A program made the position numbers and the translations under genes. DNA of 64,000 nucleotides from a virus (Duplodnaviria; Heunggongvirae; Uroviricota; Caudoviricetes), in the IMG/VR virus record IMGVR_UViG_3300027733_000047. One strand, written 5' to 3'. Below are positions 9,670 to 62,896 of the stretch, piece by piece (the first letter of the stretch is position 1; each line of letters starts with the position of its first letter). Under the pieces are notes generated by a model, which worked only from the letters and a program-made list of their open reading frames with translations, ran no database searches and had not been told where the DNA came from.

Positions 9670-9722
9670 ATTTAAGATTAATTTTCCACACTACCAAATA
9701 TTTTGCAAAGTTTTTTCAACCC

Positions 9723-9826: not shown

Positions 9827-10168
9827 TTATCTTTTATTCAACCATTCATCAAAGGTGCGATAACCTCCGAATGCTCTCCATTGGTTATACATATCATTCC
9901 TATCTTTGCAAACACGCTTTGCCCACTTGTAAACCAACTCGGTTTCTTTGAATGTGGTAAAGTTATCTCGGCAATAGTTTTCAAGAAACCCTACTGCTTG
10001 GCACCAACGAATATATGATTTTTCGGTAATGCGTCTGTTTATCCAATCATCACTTGTTCTGCCACAATCATTGAATTGTTTAATCGTATCAAACCCAGCA
10101 GACATTTTATCAATATCTACTTTGTTATATAAACTCTCAACAACCCTTGCTATGTAATGTGCTGTCAT
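9827..10168 (-). CDS. hypothetical protein
   Basis: 113-aa ORF on dominant strand. Confidence 0.55.
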   Translation of the reverse strand: MTAHYIARVVESLYNKVDIDKMSAGFDTIKQFNDCGRTSDDWINRRITEKSYIRWCQAVGFLENYCRDNFTTFKETELVYKWAKRVCKDRNDMYNQWRAFGGYRTFDEWLNKR

Positions 10169-10317
10169 ATTATTTTATATTATCTATTAACCAAGCGATA
10201 AATTTGCCTAATGAAGTTACAAACCAAATAAACCCCAATGTAACAAAAAAGCCAATCCAAAATTCTTGAGTGTATAACATACTGCAAATATAAGATAATT
10301 TTTTGAATGTACCAAAT

Positions 10318-10539
10318 TTATTTTATGTTTGTTAATGGGTAAGCGTTGATAAACCTTTCAGTAACTAGCTCAAAATTTTCTTTATCTCTAGGGTAGTATT
10401 CATTAGCAACGGATTCTAAAGCTGCTTCTACGTGTAGTTTGGCAAACTCTTTCATTGCTTGTGGAACACTTTGTTCAAAAGTGTGTCCTTCTTGCCTATG
10501 ATAATTTTTTATAAATTCTTCTGCTGTTTGTATTTTCAT
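10318..10539 (-). CDS. hypothetical protein
   Basis: ORF; consensus promoter 10541-10583 abuts ATG. Confidence 0.6.
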   Translation of the reverse strand: MKIQTAEEFIKNYHRQEGHTFEQSVPQAMKEFAKLHVEAALESVANEYYPRDKENFELVTERFINAYPLTNIK

Positions 10540-10540
10540 A

Positions 10541-10583
10541 CTGCAAATATAAGATTAATAATTGAATGTACCAAATTTATTTT
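10541..10583 (-). promoter_or_regulatory. consensus promoter abutting ATG (leaderless-type)
   Basis: ctgcaaatataagattaataattgaatgtaccaaatttatttt; -7 box ends 4 nt before ATG of 10318..10539. Confidence 0.6.
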
Positions 10584-10798
10584 TCAAATTCTTTTAGTGT
10601 TCTTAATGTTCGTTGTAATTCTTCCATATCACAACAAACTGCAACCCTTCTGCTAAATGGCAACCAAAAAAACCTATGATGTTTTACGACTACATAACCA
10701 ATCTCTAACTTACCTTCGTAGTTATATAATTGTTTATAATATGCGTAGTCATATTCGGTAAATGCTGAATTAAGTATTCTTTTTAATAATTTTTTCAT
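10577..10798 (-). CDS. hypothetical protein
   Basis: ORF; consensus promoter 10800-10842 abuts ATG. Confidence 0.6.
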   Translation of the reverse strand: MKKLLKRILNSAFTEYDYAYYKQLYNYEGKLEIGYVVVKHHRFFWLPFSRRVAVCCDMEELQRTLRTLKEFEK

Positions 10799-10799
10799 A

Positions 10800-10842
10800 C
10801 TGCAAATATAAGATTAATAATTGAATGTACCAAATTTATTTT
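10800..10842 (-). promoter_or_regulatory. consensus promoter abutting ATG
   Basis: Identical motif to 10541-10583; drives 10577..10798. Confidence 0.6.
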
Positions 10843-11153
10843 GCACTTTTTACATTATTAAATTCAACAACTCCAATTGCTCGTCTAACCAATGTCAATG
10901 CTTTTTGGTCGTAGCCACCAATATGCCAATCTGTTATTCTATTTACATCACGATTATTTTTGTAGTCATATATTGTAGCCACAACTGATTGTCCGTGAAT
11001 GCCACCTAATATTGTCCAATGTGCCAATGATTTGTCGTAATTGGTTTCAGGTTTGCCCAATGTCATAACCAATTCTTGATAGGTTATATCCAAATAACCT
11101 TGTAAGTGTGTGCCGTTTATTCTTGTGCTAGGGTGATTAATTTTGAATGCCAT
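10836..11153 (-). CDS. hypothetical protein
   Basis: ORF; consensus promoter 11170-11203. Confidence 0.6.
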   Translation of the reverse strand: MAFKINHPSTRINGTHLQGYLDITYQELVMTLGKPETNYDKSLAHWTILGGIHGQSVVATIYDYKNNRDVNRITDWHIGGYDQKALTLVRRAIGVVEFNNVKSAK

Positions 11154-11169
11154 TGCTTAATTGTTTAGG

Positions 11170-11203
11170 ACACAAATATAAGGATAATAATTCAATGTAC
11201 CAA
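11170..11203 (-). promoter_or_regulatory. consensus promoter
   Basis: cacaaatataaggataataattcaatgtaccaaatttattttt; drives 10836..11153. Confidence 0.55.
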
Positions 11204-11383
11204 ATTTATTTTTAAAATCTTTGTATCCTTGCCAAATGTTCTAATGCGTCTTTATAGGTATCTGCCCAAATACGATAGCCATCTAGTACATATAACTTTT
11301 TGCCATCTTCTCTTACTTGGATTGGTTGCGGTAAACTTGATTCGTTTTGCATTGTTTTTAATTTATAGATTATTTAATTTATT

Positions 11384-11507
11384 ACGACTTAAACTTTTTC
11401 GGATACCAAACTCCGCAACTGCCCTTGCTACAATTACCACTAACGTAATACTTTGAACAAGATGAAAATGCAACTGCGATTAGAATTAAGATGAATAACT
11501 TTTTCAT
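11384..11507 (-). CDS. small secreted Cys-rich peptide (41 aa)
   Basis: My translation MKKLFILILIAVAFSSCSKYYVSGNCSKGSCGVWYPKKFKS; promoter 11534-11573 abuts ATG. Confidence 0.4.
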
Positions 11508-11566
11508 AATAGATTGTTTTTAATTGTGAGATACAAATATAGGACTATTTTTTGTATCTACCAAAT

Positions 11567-11800
11567 TTATTTTAAAGAAAAAGAAATTTCTTTTTTTAAT
11601 GGTTTATCTACATCATAATCTAACTTACTTAATACTTCAACTAATTTATCATTAGTTTTGTGTAACTGGTTTCTAATTTCTTCGATAGTGTAAACTTTAT
11701 CTAGGTCGTTTGTTTGGCTTTCGTCTTTTAGTAAGAATATATCTACATCAGCCATAGTAGATGCAATTAATGTTCTAATTGTAAGTAATTCGTTTTGCAT
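11567..11800 (-). CDS. hypothetical protein
   Basis: ORF; promoter 11821-11860 abuts ATG. Confidence 0.6.
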   Translation of the reverse strand: MQNELLTIRTLIASTMADVDIFLLKDESQTNDLDKVYTIEEIRNQLHKTNDKLVEVLSKLDYDVDKPLKKEISFSLK

Positions 11801-11820
11801 AATTGATTTGTTTTAGAATG

Positions 11821-11860
11821 TAAATATAGGACTATTTTTTGTATCTACCAAATTTATTTT
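11821..11860 (-). promoter_or_regulatory. consensus promoter abutting ATG
   Basis: taaatataggactattttttgtatctaccaaatttatttt; drives 11567..11800. Confidence 0.55.
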
Positions 11861-12290
11861 AGATATTTACCAAAATAATTTCCGCTGATTGATACGATAT
11901 TTCGGGACTAACAAAAACTCCTTCCTTTTGGAATTTCCTTAATCTTGTATTTTCTTGTTTGGTAACTAAATTCCATATACCATACTTTGTAAGATAGATT
12001 TCTTTTAATTCATCTACACTATTAGGTGTTGTGTCCAGCAATATTTTACCAACTATTTTTCTTGGGTATTCGTGTTCTTTAACTCGTTTGTTCTTGGGTA
12101 ACTCCAATGCCTTCTCGCTTATCTTTCCGCTGAATGTTAATCTGTTTGTGGGTAGATAATATATTGCAGCACCAACGATTGTGGATAGAAATTCTTTTTG
12201 GTATTCAGTTGATGTGTCGTAACTTTGTTTTAGATTAACTAAAAGATTAAATACCGATTCAAACTTTTGTTCTGTTTTATTCATACGCAA
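11859..12290 (-). CDS. hypothetical protein
   Basis: ORF; promoter 12291-12330. Confidence 0.6.
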   Translation of the reverse strand: MRMNKTEQKFESVFNLLVNLKQSYDTSTEYQKEFLSTIVGAAIYYLPTNRLTFSGKISEKALELPKNKRVKEHEYPRKIVGKILLDTTPNSVDELKEIYLTKYGIWNLVTKQENTRLRKFQKEGVFVSPEISYQSAEIILVNI

Positions 12291-12316
12291 ATATAAGATT
12301 AATTTTTCAAAGTACC

Positions 12317-12350
12317 AAAAAAAAAGGAAAGTTTTTTTAGGACTTTCCCT
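12317..12350 (-). terminator. intrinsic terminator of 12367..12912
   Basis: Minus strand reads GGAAAGT-cctaaaaaa-ACTTTCC then T9. Confidence 0.65.
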
Positions 12351-12366
12351 TTTAGGTGTTTCACAA

Positions 12367-12912
12367 TTAACCTACTATCTTTTCGTTTATACCAAATTCA
12401 TCTAAAATTGATTCAACTCCGTAATATCCAAAACAACTATCTTCAATTTCGCCGTTTTCGTTTATCAATGTATATCCGTACACTTCGCCTCGCATATAAA
12501 GGTCGTATGTTTCTAATTCAGCCAATAGGACTTTTGTTACCTTCTCAATTTCTTTTTTGGTAACTCGCTTAACTCCGTATTCGTTTTTTACTTTATCTTT
12601 GCTAATAAACACAAACCCTATCTGCCCACTATCCCACTTGCAACTGAATGGTGTTGTTGAAATTGTTATGCCCGAATGGTCGTAAAGATATAAGGGTAAT
12701 ATGATTGCTGGTTTTTCATTTTTAATGATTGCCTTCTCCATTTCTGCCCAACCCGAATAATCTTGATGTTTGTAGGTGTGTTTGTCGCCTAACGAATATC
12801 GTCCGTGAAAACATATCATTGTAGATAGGTTATCATCGTGTCTTGGATTGTTAGGGTACTCGTCTTGTGTTACTTCTAATGTTTTGCCATTGTTTAATTT
12901 GTACGTTTCCAT
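12367..12912 (-). CDS. hypothetical protein
   Basis: Start moved to METYKLNNG (ATG 12910-12912) so it does not overlap promoter 12939-12980; terminator 12317-12350 downstream. Confidence 0.6.
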   Translation of the reverse strand: METYKLNNGKTLEVTQDEYPNNPRHDDNLSTMICFHGRYSLGDKHTYKHQDYSGWAEMEKAIIKNEKPAIILPLYLYDHSGITISTTPFSCKWDSGQIGFVFISKDKVKNEYGVKRVTKKEIEKVTKVLLAELETYDLYMRGEVYGYTLINENGEIEDSCFGYYGVESILDEFGINEKIVG

Positions 12913-13057
12913 TTTATTTGTTTTTAATTGTGAGATACAAATATAATACAATAAATTCAAACTACCAAATTTATTTTGAATTATTTTAAAGTTTTTTTAA
13001 AAAAGCTCCCGATATAGAAATATCGGGATTGATTATTGAATGAAAAAAAGAACTATT

Positions 13058-13992: not shown

Positions 13993-14273
13993 AAACTGGC
14001 TATTATTTTTTTACGATATGCAACATATTTTCCCAAACGATTGATAAAACTTTCTGCTGATTTCTTTGTGCTGAAATAGGCAAAGAATTGACAATACTCA
14101 CTATCCTCGCTTGTTGTAGGTCTAAGTACTTTGTTTTCTTTTAATTTATCTACAATGTCGTAATTGCTTTCGCAGTTACCAAATGTTTCCAACCCACGAA
14201 GGTCAGCCGTTACCGTCCATTTTTTGTCCCACTCGTATTTTGTGGGAATGATTTTGTCTATTGTGTAAGCCAT
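13989..14273 (-). CDS. hypothetical protein
   Basis: ORF; promoter 14282-14340. Confidence 0.6.
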   Translation of the reverse strand: MAYTIDKIIPTKYEWDKKWTVTADLRGLETFGNCESNYDIVDKLKENKVLRPTTSEDSEYCQFFAYFSTKKSAESFINRLGKYVAYRKKIIASL

Positions 14274-14325
14274 TGTTAATTAGTTTAGAATGTAAATATA
14301 GTACTATTTTTTCAAACTACCAAAT

Positions 14326-14679
14326 TTATTTTAATTTTTCTGCTAATTCTTTAATTACTTTAAAATCAAATTCTTGACAACCAACGATTACTTTTTTTGT
14401 CTGCTTATCAATAATCGCAGTATAATCACAATTTAACTTAAAATTACTTCGCGTAGTATTTTCAAGCAAATCAATCATTTCTTCAATGCTAACCACATTA
14501 TAACCATCACCACTAACCGAGCCAACGATTTCATTACGATTACTATTGTATTGAAAATGCTCCCAACCATTACTTTTTTCGCCAAAATAATTCTCACATA
14601 CATCAATACCTCTTTGCTTTGCGATAGTAAACAACCAACCAATTAATTTATCATTTTTTACTCTAACTGAATATATCAT
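14326..14679 (-). CDS. hypothetical protein
   Basis: ORF; promoter 14690-14745. Confidence 0.6.
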   Translation of the reverse strand: MIYSVRVKNDKLIGWLFTIAKQRGIDVCENYFGEKSNGWEHFQYNSNRNEIVGSVSGDGYNVVSIEEMIDLLENTTRSNFKLNCDYTAIIDKQTKKVIVGCQEFDFKVIKELAEKLK

Positions 14680-17690: not shown

Positions 17691-18060
17691 AGTTAATTTG
17701 TTTTAATTGTGAGATACAAATATAAGATTAATTATTCAAACTACCAAATATTTTTTGAATTATTTTTTAGATTAATTAGTTTAAAAAAAGAAGGCAAGGT
17801 AGAAACCTCGCCTCGTTTTTAATCCGTACCCTATAAAAACTAACTTTTCAGTTAATCAATGCGAATATACTAAACTAAAAAGAAAATGTCAAGTATATGT
17901 AAATTATTTTTTTTGCAGAATAAAACTGCCTCGCCTTCGGTAGCAAACCCACTATTCAGCAGTTGACCGTTTTGGTTATGTATTGCAAACCAACCCTCAC
18001 ATTCGTATATTATAACTTTCATAATGCAAATATAATGCTTTATTTTTAGATTACCAAATT

Positions 18061-29695: not shown

Positions 29696-30253
29696 TTAAA
29701 AAATGAATTTACCAAAACTATCTTTTCTTAAACATAATTGAGATAGATTTGTATTTAATATTGTTTCACCTTGGCTATCCAATTCTTTAATTTTTTTTGT
29801 CACATACTCTCTACCATCAACCCTATTTAAGATTTGTTCAAGCGTATATCCCTTCCAACTCAACATCTTATATCCGTTTTCGTTGAAATTTTTGCTATAA
29901 CATATACCCTTAAGCATATCTTTAGCCAACTTCTTTTTATGTTTCTCAATCTTTTTCTTATTGGATATAGCATATACCACTTCATTAATCCAATGTTCAA
30001 GATTACTTTTAATCTCAATAGTTCTTTCACCATAGGTTACAAACTTTGAAGGTAAGGTCTTGCAATACTCCTCTGCTTGTGCAATAATAGGTCGTAACTC
30101 AATAGAATACGCATTATAAAAGGTACAACCACCTCTGCCGTCATTATTAGCATAGGCAACCTTCTTACCATTAACATACAAATCTGCTTTGAACATCAGC
30201 GTTTCTTCGCTGAACGCTTCATTAATCTTTACGTTTTTTAATTCTAATTTCAT
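29696..30253 (-). CDS. hypothetical protein
   Basis: 185-aa ORF; promoter 30270-30315. Confidence 0.6.
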   Translation of the reverse strand: MKLELKNVKINEAFSEETLMFKADLYVNGKKVAYANNDGRGGCTFYNAYSIELRPIIAQAEEYCKTLPSKFVTYGERTIEIKSNLEHWINEVVYAISNKKKIEKHKKKLAKDMLKGICYSKNFNENGYKMLSWKGYTLEQILNRVDGREYVTKKIKELDSQGETILNTNLSQLCLRKDSFGKFIF

Positions 30254-35969: not shown

Positions 35970-36614
35970 TTAAAGATTCATTTTATCCCAGAATATGTCG
36001 TTATATGTTACGCCATTAATTATATCTGAGATTGCTCTATACTTTCTACCATAGATTTTTGCAATATCAGTCATGGTTAATCCGTCTTTATGTTTTTGTT
36101 TAATTTCTAATATTGTTTCTCTAGAAAAGAAAGTATGTCCACCTCTATTTTTAAAAGCTCCAGATTCCACAGCGTGTTTAATATTATCTTTATTATTTAT
36201 CCATTCTAAGTTATTAACTGTAGCGTTTCTTTTATCTAGGTCTATATGATTTACTTCGTTTTTATTTTCCATTCTGGGTATGAATGTTTTTGCTACTAGT
36301 CTATGTATGTATTGTTGTTTGGTTTCTAGTGTTTCATCTTTAGATAAAGCACATTTAGGGTAACCTTTATCAGATATATGAATAGATGTATAGTCGTGAT
36401 ACTTTAAGTCAAATATTCTACCCCAAGATGAGATTAGGTATCTATTTTGTTGTACATTATCATCATTTATTGTTTCCCAGATTTCTTCATCTAAATTATC
36501 TGGGATTACATTAAGTGGGTTTGTTACTCTAGCGTATTCTATATTGTTTTGTTGCAGATATTCATCTGTGAATGGTTCTAGGAGTTTTCTAAGTATTTGG
36601 GTTTCTTTGTTCAT
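35970..36614 (-). CDS. HNH homing endonuclease (NUMOD4-like + HNH)
   Basis: YLISSWGRIFDLKYHD (NUMOD4-like) and HIDLDKRNATVNNLEWINNKDN (HNH) motifs. Confidence 0.75.
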   Translation of the reverse strand: MNKETQILRKLLEPFTDEYLQQNNIEYARVTNPLNVIPDNLDEEIWETINDDNVQQNRYLISSWGRIFDLKYHDYTSIHISDKGYPKCALSKDETLETKQQYIHRLVAKTFIPRMENKNEVNHIDLDKRNATVNNLEWINNKDNIKHAVESGAFKNRGGHTFFSRETILEIKQKHKDGLTMTDIAKIYGRKYRAISDIINGVTYNDIFWDKMNL

Positions 36615-48530: not shown

Positions 48531-49901
48531 TTAATTAAATTGGATAGGGCTAGGTGGTGATGGTAATGGATGAACAATTACGGGTTGTTGTATTGTTGCA
48601 CTGCAGAGTGTTCCAACGGTTGTTGCTGTTAGACTAACATTAAATGTTCCAGCACTTGAATAGATGTGAGTTGGGTTTGTAAGTATTGATGTTGTGTTGT
48701 CACCAAAACCCCATTGATATGTTATTGAGTGGTTTGGTATTTGGGGTGTTGTATTCGTGAATACAGTAGTACCACCCAAACAAACTGGTGGTACATTAAA
48801 ACTTGGGTCTGGTGTTGGCTCTATAGTAACTATTATCGTTGTATCTCTTCCGCATCCTAAGTTAGATGATATGTATAAATTTACAGAATAGGTACCAGCT
48901 TGAAATGTATGGATTGGATTTTGTAATGTAGATATTGTACCATCATCAAATGTCCATAAGTAATTAATTGGTGAGTAGCTAGCAGAGCTGGTATTTGTAA
49001 ATTGTACTACCCCAGCACAGTTTGGTGTATATGTGAAGTTTGGAAACCCAGGGGCCATATCTAAAATATAGTACAGCGTTAATTGACACCCTAGAAAGGT
49101 TGTAACTTGACATGTGATTGTATCGTATAATTGTGGGTTGATTGTTGTGCTTTGTGTTGTATCTCCATTCTCCCAAAGATAACTAGCAAAACCACCTAAG
49201 CCATCTATCGTTAATGTTGTATCATTTTCACAATATGTTACGTGGTTAGTTGATTGACCACATTGAACAGCATCTATATAAGCGTAGCCGTAGTGTCCTC
49301 TAAGTCTGCAGTCACCTGTTTCAAATTCAAGTGTCACTGATTGTCCAACATAAGCACTTAAGTCAACTGCCACTTCAGTCCAATCTCTCCAAGCAACCGA
49401 AACAGTATCTGGCGGGTTTGGCCCACAATATTGAAACCCAGCCAAATTTGATGCTGCTGTTACGGTATAGTCAGTACAAGGTATAACGGTGCCGTTTGCT
49501 AATCTAACTCTAGATTGAAATCTAGGTTGGTCTGCTACCAAGTGGTTTGGGTCTTGGAATACCACAGCATATGCGTATCTAATGATTGTTGTTGCTGGTG
49601 TTACTGTAAATTGATAATAAAGTGCTTCTGCTTGAGCACCTACTCTATTATTTCCGAGTCTAGCTGAGTATGTACCTTGGTAAACTGTTCTTAATCCGCC
49701 ACATGTGTTTGGGTCAGTACCTTGTGTCATTATTGTTTGTCTGTTTGCTCCAAAACCATTTGTTGGTAATACGATTGGGCAGCATGTGCCTAGTCTGGCT
49801 GACCAACCAGTAAAGTTACCAAGTTCAAAATCAGTATTACCACATTGCGAATATGTTGCAACGGAAATGAATAATGATATAATAAATAAAACGTTTTTCA
49901 T
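48531..49901 (-). CDS. secreted protein with C-terminal PKD repeats
   Basis: Signal peptide MKNVLFIISLFISVATYSQ; two PKD-like units (YLWTFDDGT...NPIHTFQAGTYSVNL; YQWGFGDNT...NPTHIYSSAGTFNVSL); GC-richer than the phage background. Confidence 0.65.
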   Translation of the reverse strand: MKNVLFIISLFISVATYSQCGNTDFELGNFTGWSARLGTCCPIVLPTNGFGANRQTIMTQGTDPNTCGGLRTVYQGTYSARLGNNRVGAQAEALYYQFTVTPATTIIRYAYAVVFQDPNHLVADQPRFQSRVRLANGTVIPCTDYTVTAASNLAGFQYCGPNPPDTVSVAWRDWTEVAVDLSAYVGQSVTLEFETGDCRLRGHYGYAYIDAVQCGQSTNHVTYCENDTTLTIDGLGGFASYLWENGDTTQSTTINPQLYDTITCQVTTFLGCQLTLYYILDMAPGFPNFTYTPNCAGVVQFTNTSSASYSPINYLWTFDDGTISTLQNPIHTFQAGTYSVNLYISSNLGCGRDTTIIVTIEPTPDPSFNVPPVCLGGTTVFTNTTPQIPNHSITYQWGFGDNTTSILTNPTHIYSSAGTFNVSLTATTVGTLCSATIQQPVIVHPLPSPPSPIQFN

Positions 49902-49907
49902 AATTTA

Positions 49908-50105
49908 TTAATAACGAGGAGATGAAAGTCTTAGGGGGTCAATTGTTCTTGTTTCCCTTCTATCTAACCTACGTATTTGTCTTTCGTACTTTCTAGTATT
50001 AGTTTCAAATTTATGTCTTGGGTTTGCCGCAGCATATGGTGACATATATGTAGTACAGCCATTTGAAATGGCAATAATAAAAATTAAAATAAATATTTTT
50101 TTCAT
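49908..50105 (-). CDS. small lipoprotein
   Basis: MKKIFILIFIIAISNGC lipobox. Confidence 0.5.
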   Translation of the reverse strand: MKKIFILIFIIAISNGCTTYMSPYAAANPRHKFETNTRKYERQIRRLDRRETRTIDPLRLSSPRY

Positions 50106-50662
50106 CGTATTAAAATTAAATTTCCTTTTTTAAAACCTGTTTTACCGTCAATTCCTTTCCACCAACATTGAAAAACAAAATTAAAGATTCCTTGTTGTGC
50201 ACCTTTATATATTCCATTCCATTTATCACCCAATTTATTTGTTTGATAAACCATCTCCCCGTATCTATTATATACCTGCCAACGAATTTCGGTTATTTTA
50301 AACGGAATTGGTGACCAAGCGTCATTAAGCCCATCTCCATTAGGTGTAAATGCGTTAGGAAAAAATATTGCCGATTCTGGACATTTTACAACCTTTACCC
50401 GATATATTCTAGTTGGGTTGCCGCATTCATCTTTATAATAGACTCTTATTAGATAATATCCTGTATCTCTCCAAGTTATTCTAACATTTGAATTTGTTGA
50501 TATTGTATCGCTATTAAGTGTCCATAACCAACCACCACTACTTGTTGATGCATTTGCCCAATAGTTAAAAGTATTCCTAACGTTTGGACATAGTTCAATC
50601 TCTTGCTGAGCTTTTACCGACAGGCTCACCGTAATTAATAATATAGATATGATATATCTCAT
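50102..50662 (-). CDS. secreted protein with T9SS type-B C-terminal sorting domain (CHU_C / gliding-motility-associated CTD)
   Basis: Signal peptide; C-terminus FFPNAFTPNGDGLNDAW...VYNRYGEMVYQT...WNGIYKG...GIFNFVF...GNLILIR matches the TIGR04131-type signature (FTPNGDGINDxF ... IFNRWG..VF ... WdGtykG ... GvYvY ... GtvtLiR). Confidence 0.75.
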   Translation of the reverse strand: MRYIISILLITVSLSVKAQQEIELCPNVRNTFNYWANASTSSGGWLWTLNSDTISTNSNVRITWRDTGYYLIRVYYKDECGNPTRIYRVKVVKCPESAIFFPNAFTPNGDGLNDAWSPIPFKITEIRWQVYNRYGEMVYQTNKLGDKWNGIYKGAQQGIFNFVFQCWWKGIDGKTGFKKGNLILIR

Positions 50663-51207
50663 TAATCATGTTGTATTGGGCTTATTGTTGGTAATGGATT
50701 TACAACCACAGGATTGGTAACGCTAAACGTACAACCACCTAGGCTATATGTATATGTTACGTTTGATGTACCTACACCTGCTGTTGTTGGGCAGAATTGG
50801 TTACCAGTTACACCATTTCCAGACCAGATACCGCCATCAGGTGAGCCAACTAAGGTCACACAAGGTGCGTTAACACAGAACGGTCCAGATTGAAATGTTG
50901 GTGTTATGTTTAGCACAAACACATTTAAAAGGACTGGTGGGCCTACGCAACCAAATTCATTGGTTGGGAAAACGGTCACAGCATTTGTTATTAGGCCAGC
51001 GTTTGCTGTACCCCAATCAACGGTGATTATGTGTGTTCCTTGGCCTGAGGTAATGATACCTGGGCTGGCTACGGTCCAAGTATATGTATTATTTGGTACG
51101 TTTACAACCTGATATGTAGAGCTATTTGAACGATAACAAACAGTATCTGTTTGTGCTTTAACCAAAAAAGGTGTAAAAAATAGGAGGATAAAGAGTAACT
51201 TTTTCAT
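50662..51207 (-). CDS. secreted Ig-like/Cys-rich protein
   Basis: Signal peptide MKKLLFILLFFTPFLVKAQ; ends PLPTISPIQHD, similar to the PKD protein C-terminus PLPSPPSPIQFN. Confidence 0.55.
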   Translation of the reverse strand: MKKLLFILLFFTPFLVKAQTDTVCYRSNSSTYQVVNVPNNTYTWTVASPGIITSGQGTHIITVDWGTANAGLITNAVTVFPTNEFGCVGPPVLLNVFVLNITPTFQSGPFCVNAPCVTLVGSPDGGIWSGNGVTGNQFCPTTAGVGTSNVTYTYSLGGCTFSVTNPVVVNPLPTISPIQHD

Positions 51208-54302: not shown

Positions 54303-55433
54303 TTAATTAGAAAGTGGCATTTTTATCGCTGGATGACTTTGATATCCTTCAATAATAAAATCACCGATTTCATAATGTGCGATATCATCAACTTTACTAT
54401 CTAATATTTTTAACTTTGGTAATGGATATGGTTCTCTTGTTAATTGTTCTACAACACCTTCCTTTTGATTCAGGTAAATATGACAATCTCCCATATTTGC
54501 AATTAATTCATCAGGAACCATATTAACTTCTTTGGCTATGATTTCTAAAAGTAGAGCATAACTTGCGATGTTGAATGGTGTGCCTAACGGAACATCTTGA
54601 CTTCTAGTATTATACATTAAAGAGATTGCTCGGGTTGGTAGGTTATTATCAAGTAATTTATTCGTCCAAGCATTCACATCTCCAACTGATTTGAACTCGG
54701 GTACTACAATCTCACCTTTTTCTCTCTTTTGATTAAAAATTGAAACTCTCTCTTCAATACTTAACTCTCTCGTATAAAATTGAAAATCAGTATGACAGGG
54801 TGGAAGCGTCATTTTTTGTAACTCACCTACATTCCAAGCATTAACTTTATTGCGTCTAGAATCTGGGTCTATTTTAAGCAAATTGATTGAATTTGCGATT
54901 TGGTCTATGGTCTGTTTTTCCATATATCTCAACCCATTGCCATTAGGTATTTCCAAATCATGATTAACCCAACTTCTCCACTGTCTACCATAAATTGGTC
55001 CTAAATCTCCCCACTTCTTAGCAAACTCGTCATCGGTTTTGATTTTGTTGATGAACTCTTCTTGTGATAGAATTTTTATCTCTGAAAGATATTCTTGATA
55101 TCTCTCCTCAGTCGAAAATGATTTTTGTAATTTATTAGCGTGTTCCCACCCTTTCAAATACGCTTTATAAGCATCGCCATCCCATATATGACATCCATTA
55201 TCAACAAGGTATTTGATATTGGTATCACCACGTAAGAACCATAGTAGTTCTGTCACCATAGTTTTCCAAGCCATCTTCTTTGTTGTTAGTAATGGAAATC
55301 CTTCGCTCATTTTGTGGCGGATTTGTCTACCGAATACGCTTATGGTTCCTGTACCAGTGCGGTCTTTCTTTTCAACTCCATTATGGATTATATCCTGAAG
55401 TAGTCTTTGATATTGTTTGTCGATGTTATTCAT
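54303..55433 (-). CDS. thyA: thymidylate synthase (ThyA, long form with L. casei-type insertion)
   Basis: DRTGTGTISVFG, WGDLGPIYGRQWRSW, DPDSRR, LPPCH (catalytic Cys), PFNIASYALL; 376 aa, with the insert before WGDLG. Confidence 0.85.
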   Translation of the reverse strand: MNNIDKQYQRLLQDIIHNGVEKKDRTGTGTISVFGRQIRHKMSEGFPLLTTKKMAWKTMVTELLWFLRGDTNIKYLVDNGCHIWDGDAYKAYLKGWEHANKLQKSFSTEERYQEYLSEIKILSQEEFINKIKTDDEFAKKWGDLGPIYGRQWRSWVNHDLEIPNGNGLRYMEKQTIDQIANSINLLKIDPDSRRNKVNAWNVGELQKMTLPPCHTDFQFYTRELSIEERVSIFNQKREKGEIVVPEFKSVGDVNAWTNKLLDNNLPTRAISLMYNTRSQDVPLGTPFNIASYALLLEIIAKEVNMVPDELIANMGDCHIYLNQKEGVVEQLTREPYPLPKLKILDSKVDDIAHYEIGDFIIEGYQSHPAIKMPLSN

Positions 55434-57161: not shown

Positions 57162-57587
57162 TTATCCGATTTCATCTCGGTTTATTTGTGAATAATTAAA
57201 TGCTCTTTGTCTGTACATTGCTTCGTCCAATATATCTAGCGCGGCAGGTAATGCTGCTCTATCATCTAAGAAGTGGTTGCAATAAGGTTTACTACCTTTT
57301 TGGCCGTAGGGTAACTCGATTGGTGTTTGGTTGATTGAATCAACCTTGATACCAATTTTATCGCAATACTCCATTATATGTTGGTGTCTATCTTCGTTGC
57401 ACGCTGTGTGTATAACGGTGTAGCAGCCAACCCCTTGACACTCCTTTAGAAGCTTGATTGTTCTATCGATATCTTCTTGGTTATCTAGAGTATGGTAAGG
57501 TGAAATGGTGCTGTCAAAATCCACACCTATGATTATCTTACCATGAGATTGCCATTCTTGTACTAGGCGGTCTATATATTTTTTCAT
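57162..57587 (-). CDS. HAD-superfamily phosphatase-like protein (possible nucleotidase)
   Basis: GVDFDSTIS (DxDxT motif I). Confidence 0.4.
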   Translation of the reverse strand: MKKYIDRLVQEWQSHGKIIIGVDFDSTISPYHTLDNQEDIDRTIKLLKECQGVGCYTVIHTACNEDRHQHIMEYCDKIGIKVDSINQTPIELPYGQKGSKPYCNHFLDDRAALPAALDILDEAMYRQRAFNYSQINRDEIG

Positions 57588-57595
57588 GTTTATAA

Positions 57596-57805
57596 TTATT
57601 TTTTATCTTTTATAAATTCATTGTAAAGTAATTCCCAATCGTCAGATAAATAATCTTTTTCTCCGAGCCATTTAAAGACATCTTTGATTGTAAATCCATT
57701 AACGGATTTGGTCATTGTTTCTCTGTATGTTGGTGATACGTTTTTAAATTCATGACCACATTGACAAGGGGTTGACCAGCATTCTGAACAATCTGATAAT
57801 GCCAT
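57596..57805 (-). CDS. small Cys-rich zinc-finger-like protein
   Basis: CSECWSTPCQCGH. Confidence 0.45.
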   Translation of the reverse strand: MALSDCSECWSTPCQCGHEFKNVSPTYRETMTKSVNGFTIKDVFKWLGEKDYLSDDWELLYNEFIKDKK

Positions 57806-57806
57806 A

Positions 57807-58286
57807 TTAAAGTGTTTTTAATTCTTGTTTAACAAGTGTTAGTGCTTGACCTAATAGGTTTAAGCCAAACCAATATGATGGATTATCAATACCTTCGGCA
57901 TCTTCTGCCAACCCTATACCCCAGATGTTATCTAGTGGTGATGCTTCAACAAAGATTCTATCTTCGGTTTCTAACATTTGTTCTTTAAGGTCTTGGTTCT
58001 GACTAAACTTAGCCAAGTTGCCTTCGTAAACGATGGCCAAGCAATTCTTATCCCAAATAGCTTTGTCAAAGTTTCTAATCATTCTGCCGAATCTTTTTTG
58101 TTCTCTTGGGTTTTTTTCTTCCATGATTTGTTCAGCGATTTCCATGTCATTGAATAACAAGGCTTTCTGATACATCATGTATTGTTCGCATGAATTGTAT
58201 TCAATCCCATCGATTGTCATGTCGGCTTTATGCCATTGGGAATATATCCCATTCCAGAAGAATACGTATTTGTCTGTTATTTTCAT
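57807..58286 (-). CDS. NADAR-domain protein (YbiA-like)
   Basis: FFWNGIYSQW...IDGIEYNSCEQYMMYQKALLF...GNLAKFSQN...VEASPLDNIWGIG matches the NADAR/DUF1768 pattern. Confidence 0.7.
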   Translation of the reverse strand: MKITDKYVFFWNGIYSQWHKADMTIDGIEYNSCEQYMMYQKALLFNDMEIAEQIMEEKNPREQKRFGRMIRNFDKAIWDKNCLAIVYEGNLAKFSQNQDLKEQMLETEDRIFVEASPLDNIWGIGLAEDAEGIDNPSYWFGLNLLGQALTLVKQELKTL

Positions 58287-58290
58287 TTTA

Positions 58291-58632
58291 TTAATTTTTA
58301 TATTCTACATATGTTATTTTAATTCCTAAGTCTTTTGCGTAAGCTATTTCTTCGGCTACGCCCTTAGATTTGTCCCAACCTTCCATCATGTAAACAATCA
58401 TTTCATCACATCTATTTAAGAATGTCAGACAAAAGTTTTCCCAAAAAGGCCAATCGGTTGGCATGTCAGGTTGAAAGTTTACTGCGGTATGTCCGTATAG
58501 TATTGGGCTAAAAGCTACAACGCCATTGTTGATAAGTTCAGCTGTATACTTGGAAACCTTTTGATAGTTTTCTTCTCTAACATTGTCATCAGGATGACTA
58601 TATGGAGATGAAACAAAGATTAGTTTTCTCAC
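58291..58632 (-). CDS. DUF4406 / nucleoside 2-deoxyribosyltransferase-like protein
   Basis: IFVSSPYS... ...CDEMIVYMMEGWDKSKGVAEEIAYAKDLG pattern. Confidence 0.5.
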   Translation of the reverse strand: MRKLIFVSSPYSHPDDNVREENYQKVSKYTAELINNGVVAFSPILYGHTAVNFQPDMPTDWPFWENFCLTFLNRCDEMIVYMMEGWDKSKGVAEEIAYAKDLGIKITYVEYKN

Positions 58633-59408
58633 TTCAAACGATTTTTAATTTCAGTTAATGTTGTTTGGTTTTCAAAGTTACCATCTAGGTAAAGTGTTTT
58701 CAATTGACCTTTGGTTTCTGTTTCCCAAGTTACTTTATCGAATAGTTTTAATTCACCATCGTCATCATTTTTACCAACGTACAAAAGTCCTGTAGCTGAT
58801 TTCTTCATACCATCATCTGTAATTGGGTCTTTAAAGATTTCACGACCTTCAAAATTAACCTCAACATATGTTGCTTTCATTGCAAACCCGAATGTATCGC
58901 GAGTGTTGAATTGGTAAGTGAATGAACCAACACCCAACACGATATTTGTGCTTGCAAATCCTTTTGCTTCTAATCTAGAACAGATTTCTTCTGCTCTGTC
59001 GATTGTGATGCTGTCACCATAGATTGCACCGATGTGTGAATCTAGGACCTTGTAACCTTGTTCGTTAATGGTTCCACCGAATACATCCCAAAGCAATTCA
59101 ATAACTCCTTTGTAAGATGGGTCTTCGTCATCAACTAAACTTACCATTTTAGAACGGGTATTATATCCGCAAACAATATCAACAGGGTCGCCTGAATCAG
59201 GACGTATTACCAATTTACCATCACGAGCTAGGATTTCTTCTTTGAGAATAGGTAAATACTCTGTACACATTCTCCAGAGGTCAAATGTATCACTTACCAT
59301 ACTAAGTATTCCTGTAGGATATTTTGCTAATAACCCTCTAATACCGTTTAATTCATCAGTAACTGTTTTTGTTACAGTTCTTTTTCTAGTTTCAATAACT
59401 TTTTTCAT
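58629..59408 (-). CDS. nicotinamide phosphoribosyltransferase-family protein, C-terminal half (split gene)
   Basis: KLVIRPDSGDPVDIV, IVLGVGSFTYQ, EIFKDPITD align with the NAMPT C-terminal half (LIIRPDSGNPLD, IAFGSGGGLLQ, NVFKDPVAD). Confidence 0.75.
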   Translation of the reverse strand: MKKVIETRKRTVTKTVTDELNGIRGLLAKYPTGILSMVSDTFDLWRMCTEYLPILKEEILARDGKLVIRPDSGDPVDIVCGYNTRSKMVSLVDDEDPSYKGVIELLWDVFGGTINEQGYKVLDSHIGAIYGDSITIDRAEEICSRLEAKGFASTNIVLGVGSFTYQFNTRDTFGFAMKATYVEVNFEGREIFKDPITDDGMKKSATGLLYVGKNDDDGELKLFDKVTWETETKGQLKTLYLDGNFENQTTLTEIKNRLK

Positions 59409-60476
59409 TATTTAAGTTTTAATTATACTTTTATTTATTCCTTTCTAAAAAATCCATCACTTCAATTTCTTTTGGAACATCTATATTTTTGAACTGTTCT
59501 TTGAACTTTTCAATTAGATGGTCAGCAATTTCCATTGATTCTACCGTAAATTTTATTCTTGTAATATCATCTGGATAATTCTCAAAATTTTCATCTTCGT
59601 ATTTTAAATAATATACTTTCATTGTTTAGGTTGTTTAAGTTTAGAATACAAATATACGAACAATATTTGAAATAACAAAATTAATTTTAAAGGTTTGTAT
59701 TAATTTAATACATTTTTTAGTTTTTTTATGTCTTTTGTGTAGGTAGTAGATATTTATTAGTATGAACCACGAACAAATATACAATAAAATCATTAATAAC
59801 GCAAAATCTCAAATAAGGTCTAAAAAAGATTCTTATTTTGAAAGACATCACATTATCCCTAAAACCGCTGGTGGTGATAATTCAAAAGAAAATATCGTTC
59901 TACTAACAGCTAAAGAACACTTTGTTTGCCACCGTCTATTATGTTTCATATACCCTGAATCAAAATCCCTACGTTTTGCTTTTTGGGCGATGTGTAACCA
60001 ATTAAAAGGCGATGTTAAACGAGATTATAAAGTAACATCAAGAACATACGAAGATGCAAAACTAAAATTCAAAGAAGTTAATTCATCTTTACATAAAGGT
60101 AAAAAACTTTCAGACGAACATCTGTTAAAAATTACCAAAAGAATGTTATCTGATGATAATCCAATGAAAGGTAGAAAAGGTTCTGATAATCCATTATATA
60201 AAAAAGAACGAAGTGAATACACCAAATCTAAAATTTCAAATACCAAACTCTTAAACCCAACAAAAAATTGTAATTTTAAAGGCTTATATGTTACACCTTT
60301 AGGTAAGTTTTATACTTCGGCAGAAGCATCTAAAATACATAAATTAGATAGGTCTGTCATAATTGAAAGATGTAAAGTAAAGTCCGATAAAGTTATTACA
60401 AAAAAAGGTGTATTCTTTTCTAAAGATTTAACAATTAATGATATTGGTAAAACATATAAAGAGGTTGGATGGGATT
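59409..60476. mobile_element. homing-endonuclease-bearing insertion splitting the NAMPT-family gene
   Basis: About 1.07 kb separates the N- and C-terminal NAMPT halves; it contains the HNH ORF and one small ORF. Confidence 0.55.
59431..59622 (-). CDS. hypothetical protein inside the insertion that splits the NAMPT gene
   Basis: 63-aa ORF with promoter variant 59640-59690. Confidence 0.45.
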   Translation of the reverse strand: MKVYYLKYEDENFENYPDDITRIKFTVESMEIADHLIEKFKEQFKNIDVPKEIEVMDFLERNK

Positions 60477-60499
60477 TTATATCTCAACCTCAGAAATAA
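59762..60499 (+). CDS. HNH homing endonuclease
   Basis: FERHHIIPKTAGGDNSKENIVLLTAKEHFVCH HNH motif; plus strand between the two NAMPT halves. Confidence 0.7.
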   Translation: MNHEQIYNKIINNAKSQIRSKKDSYFERHHIIPKTAGGDNSKENIVLLTAKEHFVCHRLLCFIYPESKSLRFAFWAMCNQLKGDVKRDYKVTSRTYEDAKLKFKEVNSSLHKGKKLSDEHLLKITKRMLSDDNPMKGRKGSDNPLYKKERSEYTKSKISNTKLLNPTKNCNFKGLYVTPLGKFYTSAEASKIHKLDRSVIIERCKVKSDKVITKKGVFFSKDLTINDIGKTYKEVGWDFISQPQK

Positions 60500-61307
60500 T
60501 GTTTCCATTATCATCATAAGTTATCTCTACTTTATATTCTTCTTCAACTTCAACCTTTTTAAACTCGGTTATAGAGCACATTACCGAGTGTTCGGTTGCG
60601 TTTACGCTACCACCAACGAATCCTGTTTCACCATAATACTTTCTAGCACCGCCGATAGCTGGCAATGAATCGGTACCTGAGAATGATGTCAAGTGACCTA
60701 ACCCTGAGCTTATTGTTGCATCGATTGAATCCAATCCTCTCATTGAGAAATCATGTCCTTGCCAGTCGATAAACCATGCTCTTTCAGCATCAGTTTTTTC
60801 TTGCCACTTGGTTAATACCTTACGATATTGGTGAGCGATGGTAGCAGATGTTGTTGGTTTCCACAAAAGGTTTGAAATGATTGTTTCAAGGTAATTTGTT
60901 ATCCAATAGAAATCAGGATGTGTGTTGTGGATTGTAAGAATAGGAATTCTCATTGGTACTAGTGTTCCTTCTTCTAGTATCTTTACATGGATAGGTAAGT
61001 AACCCAAGTCATGTAGTTTTTCAAAGTGTGTAACATCGTAATCGGTACCTAAGTACATTGATAGTTCGCGTTTAATTTCACCACAAACTTCAGATTTCAT
61101 TCTATTAAAGAAATCATCTCTGAATGCTTCGTTGATTTGTTTCATTACCATTTGTTGACCAAATGATACAACTTTATCACAACCCTTTGGAGCGTATTTG
61201 TTGCTACGTGGTGTAAAGTTTGAATAAACTAATGTTGTACCTTGTGGATACATTTGATGGTGTGCTGTTTTATAACCATCGGTAAGTAAAAGTGGATTGA
61301 TTTTCAT
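60477..61307 (-). CDS. nicotinamide phosphoribosyltransferase-family protein, N-terminal half (split gene)
   Basis: INPLLLTDGYKTAHHQMYPQGT ... FSGTDSLPAIGGARKYYG ... ATEHSVM align with the NAMPT N-terminal half (NILLATDSYKVTHYKQYP ... FKGTDTVAGLALIKKYYG ... AAEHSTI); the C-terminal roughly 30 aa do not align. Confidence 0.75.
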   Translation of the reverse strand: MKINPLLLTDGYKTAHHQMYPQGTTLVYSNFTPRSNKYAPKGCDKVVSFGQQMVMKQINEAFRDDFFNRMKSEVCGEIKRELSMYLGTDYDVTHFEKLHDLGYLPIHVKILEEGTLVPMRIPILTIHNTHPDFYWITNYLETIISNLLWKPTTSATIAHQYRKVLTKWQEKTDAERAWFIDWQGHDFSMRGLDSIDATISSGLGHLTSFSGTDSLPAIGGARKYYGETGFVGGSVNATEHSVMCSITEFKKVEVEEEYKVEITYDDNGNIISEVEI

Positions 61308-61317
61308 AATTTTATTT

Positions 61318-62085
61318 TTAAAAATGTGTATAAATTGTTAAGTTAGATAATTCGTATTTATCGTATTTGCTATTGGTGCAATAGATTTTTTCGTATAGGT
61401 TTTCTAATTCTTTATTAGGGTTAGGCACAGTAATGTGACTTACTGCAAGATAAAGCTTACCAACATTTTTTGTTTTAAGTAGCTTGGCCAAGCCTACAAA
61501 TGTTCCACCGAACACACATAAGTCATCTAGGACTAGGATGTCAGCACCTTCAAAATCTTCTTTGTCGATGGTTTGTGTCAATTTGTGTGTTACCAAATCT
61601 CTAGACTTGCTAGCAGCATATACGCCACCTTCGTGATGTAATGTATCAGCAAGTTTGTTAATCCATTTGAATGACCCAGCGTCTGTTGATAAGAAGATGG
61701 GTGTTGATTTGATATCTTCCAATACAGAACCGATAAAGATAGAGTTATCTATAACCCTGCTGTTATTTAAACCCATTAGGGTTGAATCGCTATGTGGGTG
61801 ATATACATAAACCCTTGCAAAGTTGCATGAGTTGATAAAATCACATACCAATTTTAATTCAAACGATTGGTTGGTTTCAAATCTGCGGTCATGTTGTTGT
61901 TGAAACATGCAAGGGATTTTAAGAACAACATTTTGAATCTGATTAAAATCACATATGTCTTTAAGTGACTTGATAAAGAATAAATCTTCGTAGGTGTTGA
62001 TTCTTTCTGTGATTACTGGTTCTCTGAAATCGGTAATCTCTGCGTAAACGGTACCGTCTGGGTATTTGATTCGATTGTAAAGCAT
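61318..62085 (-). CDS. ribose-phosphate pyrophosphokinase-family protein (Prs / ADPR-PP-synthetase-like)
   Basis: KIPCMFQQQHDRR (compare YARQDRR), STDAGSFKWINKLA, ILVLDDLCVFGGT (compare DDIIDTAGT) in Prs order. Confidence 0.7.
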   Translation of the reverse strand: MLYNRIKYPDGTVYAEITDFREPVITERINTYEDLFFIKSLKDICDFNQIQNVVLKIPCMFQQQHDRRFETNQSFELKLVCDFINSCNFARVYVYHPHSDSTLMGLNNSRVIDNSIFIGSVLEDIKSTPIFLSTDAGSFKWINKLADTLHHEGGVYAASKSRDLVTHKLTQTIDKEDFEGADILVLDDLCVFGGTFVGLAKLLKTKNVGKLYLAVSHITVPNPNKELENLYEKIYCTNSKYDKYELSNLTIYTHF

Positions 62086-62107
62086 TTGTTTTATTTTTTA
62101 ATTGTTA

Positions 62108-62896
62108 TTATTTATATTGCCATATATATCCAATGGCTGTTTTTGCTCTTCCATTAAGACAATTTGATATGTTGGTCCCAGTTTTTAAATTAAGTTCTTT
62201 AATAATATCTTGAATACTATTCCATTCTTTAATTAAATTCATATTTTTATCATACTGAATTACTTTTTTAAATTTTAAATTAATGTATGGTTTAACACTT
62301 TTTAATTTTTTTGTTAAAAATAATTTTTTATTTTTCTTCAGATAGGCACCATTGTAAATTGAATTCCGTAGAGTACTTAATTTTATGTTGTAGTAATCAG
62401 AAGCAACTTTAATCGATTCCCATTCTTTAATGAAAAAACCCGTTTCATCGTATTCGTAACATTTTTGACATATTTGTTTTTTCCACATTGAAGAGTCTCG
62501 TTTCACACCTAATTTACTATCTGAAATTTTTTTTCTTGTTTCATATGAAAATTTTCGCAAAGTTTTATTATACTCACCAATTTTTCTTTTAGCCTCGGAT
62601 GTATGTTTTCGACCTTCACAATTTCCAGCAACTGGGCATACATTATATTGTGATGGTGTATTATCAATCCACCACTGCTCTCTCTCTATCAATTTATCCT
62701 TATTTTCAATATGTTCTAAAATAATAAATTCAAAATTTTCTTTACCGTATTTATTCCAAGCGTTTTGTAAAATAATTGAATGGTGTTCATTTTTTTTAAG
62801 TTTAGATAAATGAGAATTTTTTCTTTTATTAAATTTAATTGTTGACCCGACGTATCGTTTCATATTGATTTTATTAAGTATACAATATATTACCAT
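62108..62896 (-). CDS. GIY-YIG homing endonuclease
   Basis: VIYCILNKINMKRYVGST...R..SH and NAWNKYGKENFEFIILE (I-TevI-like). Confidence 0.7.
   Translation of the reverse strand: MVIYCILNKINMKRYVGSTIKFNKRKNSHLSKLKKNEHHSIILQNAWNKYGKENFEFIILEHIENKDKLIEREQWWIDNTPSQYNVCPVAGNCEGRKHTSEAKRKIGEYNKTLRKFSYETRKKISDSKLGVKRDSSMWKKQICQKCYEYDETGFFIKEWESIKVASDYYNIKLSTLRNSIYNGAYLKKNKKLFLTKKLKSVKPYINLKFKKVIQYDKNMNLIKEWNSIQDIIKELNLKTGTNISNCLNGRAKTAIGYIWQYK

Follow-up and report, generated by a model that had tools for sequence, protein, structure and literature searches.

A gene block at positions 57162-62896 was analysed within a stretch of 64,000 nucleotides (nt) from the uncultured virus record IMGVR_UViG_3300027733_000047; the whole stretch is referred to here as the window. 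The block is interpreted, with a probability of roughly 0.68, as an operon of the NAD+ reconstitution pathway NARP1, carried by a Bacteroidota-infecting phage, in which Namat has been divided by a mobile cassette into two polypeptides that remain functional together. In the proposed pathway Adps would pyrophosphorylate ADP-ribose (ADPR), and Namat would join the resulting ADPR pyrophosphate (ADPR-PP) to nicotinamide, giving NAD+ and countering NAD+-depleting defences. The two-piece Namat would be a working enzyme analogous to the NrdA of Aeh1, whose gene is split by mobE. An earlier note on this DNA had recognised a Prs-like synthetase, a two-part NAMPT-family gene, a DUF4406 protein, a NADAR protein, a zinc-finger mini-protein and a HAD phosphatase. 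All of its open reading frames (ORFs) were found where it had placed them, on the minus strand. The motifs QQQHDRR and DDLCVFGGT are present in the protein encoded at 61318-62085 and RPDSGDP in that encoded at 58629-59408, and the identifications held in profile searches and in a structure model of the HAD protein. That note was silent on the HNH, orf63 and GIY-YIG ORFs, and on the two halves being separate polypeptides.

The IMG/VR collection was scanned for related loci, which gave 80 in which the N part of Namat is 75-86% identical to that of the window. The gene is contiguous, at approximately 481-511 amino acids (aa), in about 74 of these. In the intact relatives the positions equivalent to residue 245 of the window N fragment and residue 18 of the C fragment lie four codons apart in the same frame, and the junction reads ...SVNATEHSVMCAG(G/T)K(E/D)DE(I/V)GTFRRLLETYPTGILS... 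The window N ORF reads ...ATEHSVMCSITE followed by FKKVEVEEEYKVEITYDDNGNIISEVEI and a stop codon. The C ORF starts MKKVIETRKRTVTKTVT and rejoins the family at DELNGIRGLLAKYPTGILS. The N fragment is collinear with intact homologues as far as residue 245, the break lies inside a conserved domain, and the N tail and the C head are both missing from intact homologues. A cassette of approximately 1.2 kb (59358-60563) interrupts the gene a few codons beyond those for the catalytic histidine. The cassette carries an antisense HNH homing endonuclease gene, orf63 and a Bacteroidota-type promoter, a near-identical copy of which is placed directly upstream of Adps in the related locus L081. Transcription of the C fragment and of the genes after it therefore need not depend on read-through across the antisense endonuclease gene. 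The same arrangement was recovered from independent assemblies of two further samples, at 100% and 99.98% identity to the window over 6.8 and 4.8 kb, and is thus not an assembly artefact.

In the proposed mechanism the cassette would end the N fragment with a stop codon after an acidic, hairpin-like tail of 28 aa and would give the C fragment an ATG of its own, followed by a basic head of 17 aa. Active-site residues lie on both fragments, which must therefore reassemble non-covalently, and the oppositely charged tails probably help them to do so. Cassette and tails together would constitute a homing unit able to invade intact Namat genes without destroying them.

An imperfect palindrome, GAGCAC-N8-GTGTTC, was noted at 60574-60593 in the E-H-S-V-M-C-S codons adjoining the insertion point. 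On the plus strand it resembles a terminator and is placed approximately 75 nt past the HNH stop codon; it may belong to the endonuclease target or may terminate the HNH gene.

The fragments were assigned to Namat by comparison with solved structures, using the Namat residue numbering of PMC12774641. By phmmer the N half matched residues 9-253 of Namat structure 9w5x (E 4e-75) and the C half residues 264-487 (E 1.3e-71); 9w5x and 9w5w were named as Namat by the fold search. N-half residues D10, Y12, F187, S188, R190, D213, A237 and H240 correspond to Namat D13, Y15, F189, S190, R192, D215, A242 and H245, and C-half residues R69, D71, G131, D132 and GSFTYQFNTRD (161-171) to Namat R306, D308, G360, D361 and G390-D400. 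The catalytic-core residues (F189, R192, D215, the His, R306 and D308 in Namat numbering) are all identical and are shared out over both fragments, and neither half is catalytically dead. The signature of Namat is a clamp helix, GSX-phi-X-phi-X-phi-TRD, in which positions 3 and 7 are aromatic (PMC12774641). This motif reads GSFTYQFNTRD in the window, GSFTYQYNTRD in SpbetaL1 Namat and GAQTYQRNTRD in the true Nampt HdNadV; the window protein has both adenine-stacking aromatics, and HdNadV has AQ and R in their place.

The adjacent Prs-family protein belongs to phrog_619, as does the Adps of mycobacteriophage DyoEdafos (E 4.9e-72), which served to reconstitute NARP1 in vitro (bioRxiv 10.64898/2026.05.28.727677). 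It scored 59.8 bits against an NCBIfam Prs cut-off of 113 and fell under every Prs cut-off, so that the profile searches gave no placement with housekeeping Prs. The Pfam Pribosyltran score was 25.6 bits, slightly below the gathering threshold. No Adps was found in the Protein Data Bank (PDB) by sequence, the only matches being archaeal and bacterial Prs with E values of at least 1.7e-9. In 72 of the 80 relatives, Adps and Namat are no more than 6 kb apart. Neither NMNAT motifs ((H/T)xGH, ISSTxxR) nor a Nudix box were found in any frame of the window, and no NMNAT was found among the 30 window ORFs scanned with Pfam. The absence of NMNAT that the earlier note had remarked beside these genes therefore extends over all 64 kb, and its assignment of the pair to the NARP1 type, rather than to housekeeping Prs with Nampt, is supported by the Namat-closest halves, the clamp motif, the Adps PHROG family and the Prs scores.

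A salvage route based on phosphoribosyl pyrophosphate (PRPP) would account for the same pair of genes if a true Prs supplied PRPP, a Nampt made nicotinamide mononucleotide (NMN), and host enzymes or an NMNAT encoded beyond the window finished the synthesis as in NARP2. Namat keeps NMN-forming activity with PRPP in vitro (PMC12774641), the window protein is 42% identical to the true Nampt HdNadV against 45% to Namat, and the analysis covered only 64 kb of a genome that is probably far larger. The route is nevertheless improbable given the Namat-specific aromatic clamp, the grouping of the Prs-like protein with a verified Adps and the absence of NMNAT motifs in the window. The published survey argues in the same direction: in it, 97% of Adps-clade genes adjoined Namat, and no phage had both pathways.

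The spread of the split was read from protein searches in which each half was compared with 5.8 billion proteins and tail types were read among the top 120 protein clusters. N tails of the window type (type A) were found in 23 distinct split clusters. A second, unrelated kind of tail (type B, ...GDIVSKLENGEMKELVNEYYSRK), which is probably helical, occupies this position in 19 clusters, and a third type does so in one. Type A C heads read MK.[VI]IE.R.R.V.K.VT[DN]EL.GI and are kept in 41 distinct clusters; type B C heads read MYNLENPD.KGIAEYQVFKRLL. N-tail and C-head types agree on all nine contigs examined on which both halves are present. The mean net charges are complementary, at -9.0 for the N tails (22 type A tails extracted) and +5.8 for the C heads. 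Ratios of nonsynonymous to synonymous polymorphism (pN/pS) were calculated from seven type A alleles and were 0.2-0.5 in the tails and 0.1-0.36 in the enzyme core, with pS at 0.4-0.9, near saturation, in most pairs. The tails are thus under purifying selection, as is the enzyme core.

The window shares its split and its HNH gene with loci L001, L007 and L082, in which HNH homologues stand at the identical place. The gap between the halves varies elsewhere. In L082 it extends over 4.2 kb (8809-13007) and holds the HNH gene plus 12 extra small sense-strand ORFs, including orf63 at 97% nt identity; the gap apparently serves as a landing site for cargo. In L086 it is occupied by a LAGLIDADG gene, and in L087 by a different ORF of 324 aa with only a weak, below-threshold match to the GIY-YIG endonuclease segE. 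In the L083-85 lineage (24 contigs read; indexed in 64 collection blocks) the split and the tails are kept, the gap is 7 nt and no endonuclease is present. A gene that is still split, intact and constrained after loss of the endonuclease is best explained as encoding a functional two-subunit enzyme. The split is real and old.

By default, interruption by a selfish element leaves an inactive gene, and the halves could be a decaying pseudogene in a phage that no longer rebuilds NAD+. Relative L001, described below, lends this explanation some support. It is unlikely for the window, in which neither half is truncated and no catalytic residue has been lost. The split moreover persists across synonymously saturated alleles with selection signatures in core and tails, is found in dozens of distinct clusters on many contigs, and was retained as two genes in the lineage that lost its endonuclease.

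Restoration of a contiguous Namat by a group I or group II intron, by split intein tails or by ribosome bypass is very improbable. Homing endonucleases are often encoded in introns or inteins, and the N tail starts near a Cys. Against splicing, Rfam gave no group I or II intron at the gathering threshold when the full window was searched, and hits over 59200-60700 at E<=10 were no more than noise. The N ORF has a conserved, selected tail with its own stop codon, and a conserved start of its own opens the C ORF. The endonuclease is encoded on the other strand, and the length of the gap varies between 7 nt and 4.2 kb, with 12 ORFs in the longest case. A split intein was also rejected, since tails of 28 and 17 aa (45 aa in total) are judged too short and have neither intein motifs nor a terminal HN/+1 nucleophile, and the junction Cys is native to intact genes.

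The two fragments were concatenated and modelled with AlphaFold2 (AF2), which returned a Namat fold (predicted local distance difference test score, pLDDT, 85.1; predicted template modelling score, pTM, 0.84). By Foldseek this model matched 9w5x with a target-normalised template modelling (TM) score of 0.92 at 45% identity. The N tail was predicted as a beta-hairpin and the C head as the third strand of the same sheet, at pLDDT 73-85.

Several points weigh against a working two-piece Namat in a NARP1 operon. The chains were artificially joined for AF2, so that the tail sheet is only suggestive and the pairing across the junction may be an artefact. In L001, a 251-kb relative, the C half of Namat is frameshifted and Adps is interrupted, with residues 1-155 and 158-266 approximately 845 nt apart and LAGLIDADG remnants present; here the operon is decaying or else the assembly is poor, and the locus indicates that decay of such operons does occur. 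The residue at the position of Namat SCL R40 is Lys in the window. The Adps-like protein has a pairwise identity of only 24% to the verified DyoEdafos Adps, which makes membership of the Adps clade likely, short of proven, and specificity for ADPR as opposed to ribose-5-phosphate is unreadable from sequence. The linkage of NADAR and DUF1937 genes to Namat is patchy, as detailed below.

In L001 these interrupted genes were located at 2517-4128 and 7490-8258.

In the PHROG family phrog_12872 (547 positions) Adps proteins match approximately positions 16-221 and Namat C parts approximately 374-534, as in a family of Adps-Namat fusions. The families phrog_16547 (315 positions) and phrog_15800 (322 positions) are apparently composed of half-length Namat proteins. 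Split forms are hinted at by this pattern among deposited phage genomes.

Mobility was assessed by comparing the window with its relatives. Between the window and L082, a stretch comprising the HNH gene, the two tails, orf63 and approximately 100-200 nt of Namat flank has an nt identity of 95-100%, which falls farther out to 85-90% in the remainder of Namat and 61-83% in Adps. Such a gradient is as expected from homing with co-conversion. The nearest N-core relative of the window, P0003 (96%), has a type B tail and a different antisense ORF of 264 aa with a NUMOD3 motif. More generally, the nearest N-core neighbour of a type A sequence is more often intact or type B than type A. Split type does not track N-core phylogeny, which indicates that the cassettes, tails included, move among Namat alleles.

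The features of the block are collected in the table. The 3' end of the HNH gene and the N-fragment tail overlap by 23 nt, and 10 nt separate the end of Adps from the start of the N fragment. For orf63, no match was found in Pfam, PHROG or NCBIfam. It is 97-99% identical in nt to an ORF inside the enlarged L082 insert and is not present in the L001 or L007 loci.

Table. Features of the Namat neighbourhood at 57162-62896 of the window.
Feature	Position	Strand	Evidence or remark
Free-standing GIY-YIG/NUMOD homing endonuclease	62108..62896	-	Pfam GIY-YIG E 5e-13, I-HmuI_NUMOD-like, NUMOD1; PHROG homing-endonuclease families
Adps-like protein, Prs-family candidate ADPR-pyrophosphate synthetase, 255 aa	61318..62085	-	phrog_619 E 9.5e-44
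Namat N fragment, full ORF, 276 aa	60477..61307	-	NAMPT_N and start of NAPRTase domain (Pfam)
Namat N fragment core, residues 1-248, ending just past catalytic His motif ATEHSVM	60564..61307	-	
Acidic tail of N fragment, FKKVEVEEEYKVEITYDDNGNIISEVEI and stop, 28 aa, cassette-derived	60477..60563	-	
HNH + NUMOD3 homing endonuclease, antisense to the operon	59762..60499	+	Pfam HNH; phrog_655 E 8.5e-43
Bacteroidota-type promoter motif TTTG-N19-TATATTTG, in cassette	59649..59679	-	Upstream of orf63 and C fragment
orf63, 63-aa ORF, cassette-borne	59431..59622	-	
Namat C fragment, full ORF, 259 aa	58629..59408	-	Rest of NAPRTase (Pfam), RPDSGDP
ATG and basic head of C fragment, MKKVIETRKRTVTKTVT, 17 aa, cassette-derived	59358..59408	-	
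Namat C fragment core, residues 18-259	58629..59357	-	phmmer to Namat 9w5x
DUF1937/DUF7768/DUF4406 protein, nucleoside 2-deoxyribosyltransferase-like fold	58291..58632	-	Pfam DUF1937 E 4.8e-17
NADAR-domain protein, Glu-type (YbiA-like branch)	57807..58286	-	Pfam NADAR E 7e-51
Cys-rich 69-aa protein, CxxC...CxCxH	57596..57805	-	ORF list
Small HAD-type phosphatase, BT0820-like, 141 aa	57162..57587	-	phrog_1238 E 2.4e-17

The GIY-YIG gene, which is inserted immediately upstream of Adps, is missing at this site in the closest relatives, L082 and L081, whose alignments to the window begin at 62102 and 62096, respectively. A further endonuclease gene, of the HNH_3 type, was noted at 35970-36614 (-), and the window thus holds at least three homing-endonuclease-like genes.

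Downstream of the C fragment, the DUF1937, NADAR and HAD proteins would probably be auxiliary enzymes acting on ADP-ribose or nucleotide derivatives. The start codon of the DUF1937 gene overlaps the stop codon of the C fragment (4 nt), and the gene stands directly after the C fragment in L082 too. Its product was assigned to phrog_355 and matched PDB 1t1j (E 2e-8). The Cys-rich protein gave no Pfam, PHROG or NCBIfam match and had no homologue in the 80 loci. The HAD gene product had no Pfam match and only a weak match to NF046079. Among 58 homologues its D23/D25/T27, T61, K100 and D108/D109 are invariant or nearly so, and its AF2 model (pLDDT 94.1) matched 2obb best by Foldseek (BT_0820 HAD-type protein, probability 1.00), with other HAD proteins and the phosphatase domain of T4 Pnk ranking next. 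The identification of a HAD phosphatase is borne out by these DxDxT, T, K and DD columns together with the 2obb fold match.

The NADAR protein scored 154.8 bits against the TIGR02464 cut-off of 73.7, this being the YbiA/riboflavin N-glycosidase model. Its closest solved chain is 8bau (E 6.6e-15), deposited as 'NADAR domain-containing protein', which we take to be the Phytophthora NADAR, and the Glu positions of the CEQY and VEAS motifs are kept. Homologues at approximately 80% identity were found in 9 of the 80 related loci. By its TIGR02464 score, the protein is placed outside the clades shown to neutralise DarT1 (the T4-type His variant and the Bas32/Bas60 types). Being Glu-type and YbiA-like, and not of the T4 AdfN or DarG1 type, it has an anti-DarT role that is plausible but unproven.

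Linkage was counted within 6 kb of Namat over the 80 related loci. A NADAR gene was found in 9 and a DUF1937 gene in 4; HAD genes of any type were found in 20, and of the window type in 8. Commoner companions were Nuc_deoxyri_tr2 (48/80) and a macrodomain protein resembling ADPR-1''-phosphatases (29/80), both of which are absent from the window. A macrodomain gene of the latter kind in L082, at 14132-14659 (175 aa; ADP-ribose 1''-phosphate phosphatase-like, PDB 6lfu E 8e-5), stands between DUF1937 and NADAR and has no homologue in the window. A combined island against NAD/ADP-ribose-based immunity, as the earlier note suggested, is accordingly plausible but only weakly supported. That note's further suggestion that the gene combination may be undescribed agrees with the searchable literature, in which NARP1 with the NADAR/DUF1937/HAD set was not found.

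The DUF1937, NADAR, Cys-rich and HAD genes may instead be unrelated neighbours, that is, morons for nucleotide metabolism or RNA repair that form no counter-defence module, and this is a distinctly possible reading. The patchy linkage favours it, as do the placement of the NADAR protein in a YbiA-like branch described in one study as mostly housekeeping and rare in phages (PMC11825919) and the co-occurrence of HAD/Pnk-like genes beside NARP1 with RNA ligase in other phages. A counter-defence role is favoured by the overlap of the DUF1937 start with the Namat-C stop and the recurrence of this order in L082, by the presence of an N-glycosidase-fold gene near Namat in 48 of the 80 relatives and of a macrodomain phosphatase gene in 29, by the renewed adjacency of HAD and NADAR genes in the distant locus L087, and by the in vitro hydrolysis of ADP-ribosyl-guanine by Glu-type NADARs (PMC11125620).

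A gene for a kinase with a HAD/NT5C (Pnk-like) part was noted between or right after the NARP1 genes in two unrelated phages, L083 (6094-6999) and L089 (DyoEdafos; 6595-7596). Phosphatase/kinase genes may be a recurrent neighbour of NARP1.

The host was considered from the wider window. Three proteins with PKD domains are encoded at 48531-51207 (-), and in one of the three a CHU_C type IX secretion sorting domain is present as well (Pfam). Their occurrence in an early/middle region of the phage suggests that the host belongs to the Bacteroidota and that some phage proteins may be secreted or displayed at the surface. Matches to the Bacteroidota promoter consensus TTTG-N17-21-TAnnTTTG number 73 over the window, where 5.1 would be expected; nearly all are on the minus strand, and one of them is the motif in the cassette. 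Together these two features indicate a Bacteroidota host. A scan for sigma-70 promoters and terminators showed no enrichment in the window, as expected with a host of this type. No cultured relative was found at the DNA level when the block was compared by megablast with 50,697 phage records. By tblastn, homologues in cultured phages were 24-60% identical only, the closest Namat being approximately 54-60% identical. Relatives were found on contigs of up to approximately 250 kb, from which the phage is inferred to be large.

Approximately 60 copies of a conserved Bacteroidota-type promoter with the extended consensus TTTGGTAGTTTGAAnnnnTAATCTTATATTTG precede small minus-strand genes at 600-35000 of the window (for example 5136-5167, 8916-8947 and 17717-17748), and this set looks like a phage early-promoter family. 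The thymidylate synthase at 54303-55433 (-) is 376 aa long against a Pfam model of 266 positions, with approximately 110 aa of insertions, and homologues of similar length are present in four related loci. The ORF at 29696-30253 (-) gave a weak match to the ADP-ribosylation-related factor HPF1 (histone PARylation factor 1; E 4.6e-4, 20.4 bits), which is below the gathering score and may be chance.

NARP1, a phage counter-defence, was discovered recently and is widespread, and genes fractured by endonucleases are also known. Literature searches found no description of a split Namat or NAMPT, of NARP1 with NADAR, or of a function for DUF1937/DUF4406; a Namat made in two pieces by cassettes that bring their own assembly tails is undescribed in the literature searched. 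A broader interpretation is offered tentatively and is itself rather doubtful. In this interpretation Namat in a large clade of uncultured, probably Bacteroidota-infecting phages would be a hotspot for split-and-rescue cassettes, with at least two unrelated families entering at the same codon by the catalytic His, each with matched assembly peptides, start and stop codons and a promoter. The two-piece enzyme would outlive the endonuclease, and DUF1937, the Glu-type NADAR and the BT0820-like HAD would form a new ADPR-feeding extension of NARP1 that replaces the absent macrodomain phosphatase. Since the cassettes bring the peptides, codons and promoter with them, invasion would be phenotypically neutral.

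If the interpretation is correct, Namat tolerates fission right after its catalytic histidine, and the tails are ready-made peptide pairs for reassembly that are possibly useful in split-enzyme engineering. The single anecdote of Aeh1 NrdA would become a populated natural system with intact, occupied and 'fossil' (split, endonuclease-free) alleles, in which several endonuclease families and two tail solutions occur at one site. Such a system would be a direct testbed for how homing endonucleases enter genes that are essential or beneficial and yet do not destroy them. Where annotation pipelines and anti-defence finders look for a Namat of approximately 490 aa, they will miss these operons or label them as broken.

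The block was finally compared with known systems. It resembles the NARP1 loci of Bas63, SpbetaL1, Fado and DyoEdafos (bioRxiv 10.1101/2024.02.11.579819; PMC12774641) in its adjacent Prs- and NAMPT-family genes, the Namat catalytic core, the adenine-clamp SCH motif, the PHROG families of verified members and the lack of a nearby NMNAT. It differs from them in that Namat is encoded by two ORFs parted by a homing-endonuclease cassette, in its short Adps (255 aa) and in its probable Bacteroidota host. Accessory enzymes that feed ADPR into NARP1 have already been published, namely Adpp (bioRxiv 10.64898/2026.01.28.702374) and RyDEP (bioRxiv 10.64898/2026.05.28.727677). The concept of extra operon enzymes turning defence products into ADPR, as in NARP1-AP and NARP1 with RyDEP, is common to the island proposed here. 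The window, unlike these, has neither a macrodomain nor a RyR-domain gene, and the proteins encoded beside its NARP1 pair are DUF1937, a Glu-type NADAR and a BT0820-like HAD. As with AdfN of T4 and the BASEL phages (PMC11825919), the window has a stand-alone phage NADAR with catalytic residues; it differs in being Glu-type, in neither the His-type T4 clade nor the DarG1-like clade.

Fractured genes with split inteins (PMC2677866) are also two-piece genes with a homing endonuclease between the parts, found in metagenomic phage-like DNA. The window differs in having no intein blocks, and its tails have no splicing residues. The closest precedent is Aeh1 nrdA, in which the HNH endonuclease gene mobE interrupts the coding sequence next to active-site codons, each fragment is translated separately, and oppositely charged, insertion-derived tails were shown experimentally to be essential for activity (PMC3045599). 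As in nrdA-a/nrdA-b, a free-standing HNH gene in the window splits an enzyme gene by active-site codons, the active site is composite, the two fragments would be translated independently, and each of the two ORFs has a unique, oppositely charged tail that derives from the insertion. The enzyme here is Namat instead of NrdA, the endonuclease gene is antisense, and the charge polarity is reversed, the N fragment of the window being acidic. Aeh1 is furthermore a single phage, whereas the split Namat allele is widespread and diverse, its gap has hosted several endonuclease families or none, and a second, unrelated tail pair is found at the same site.

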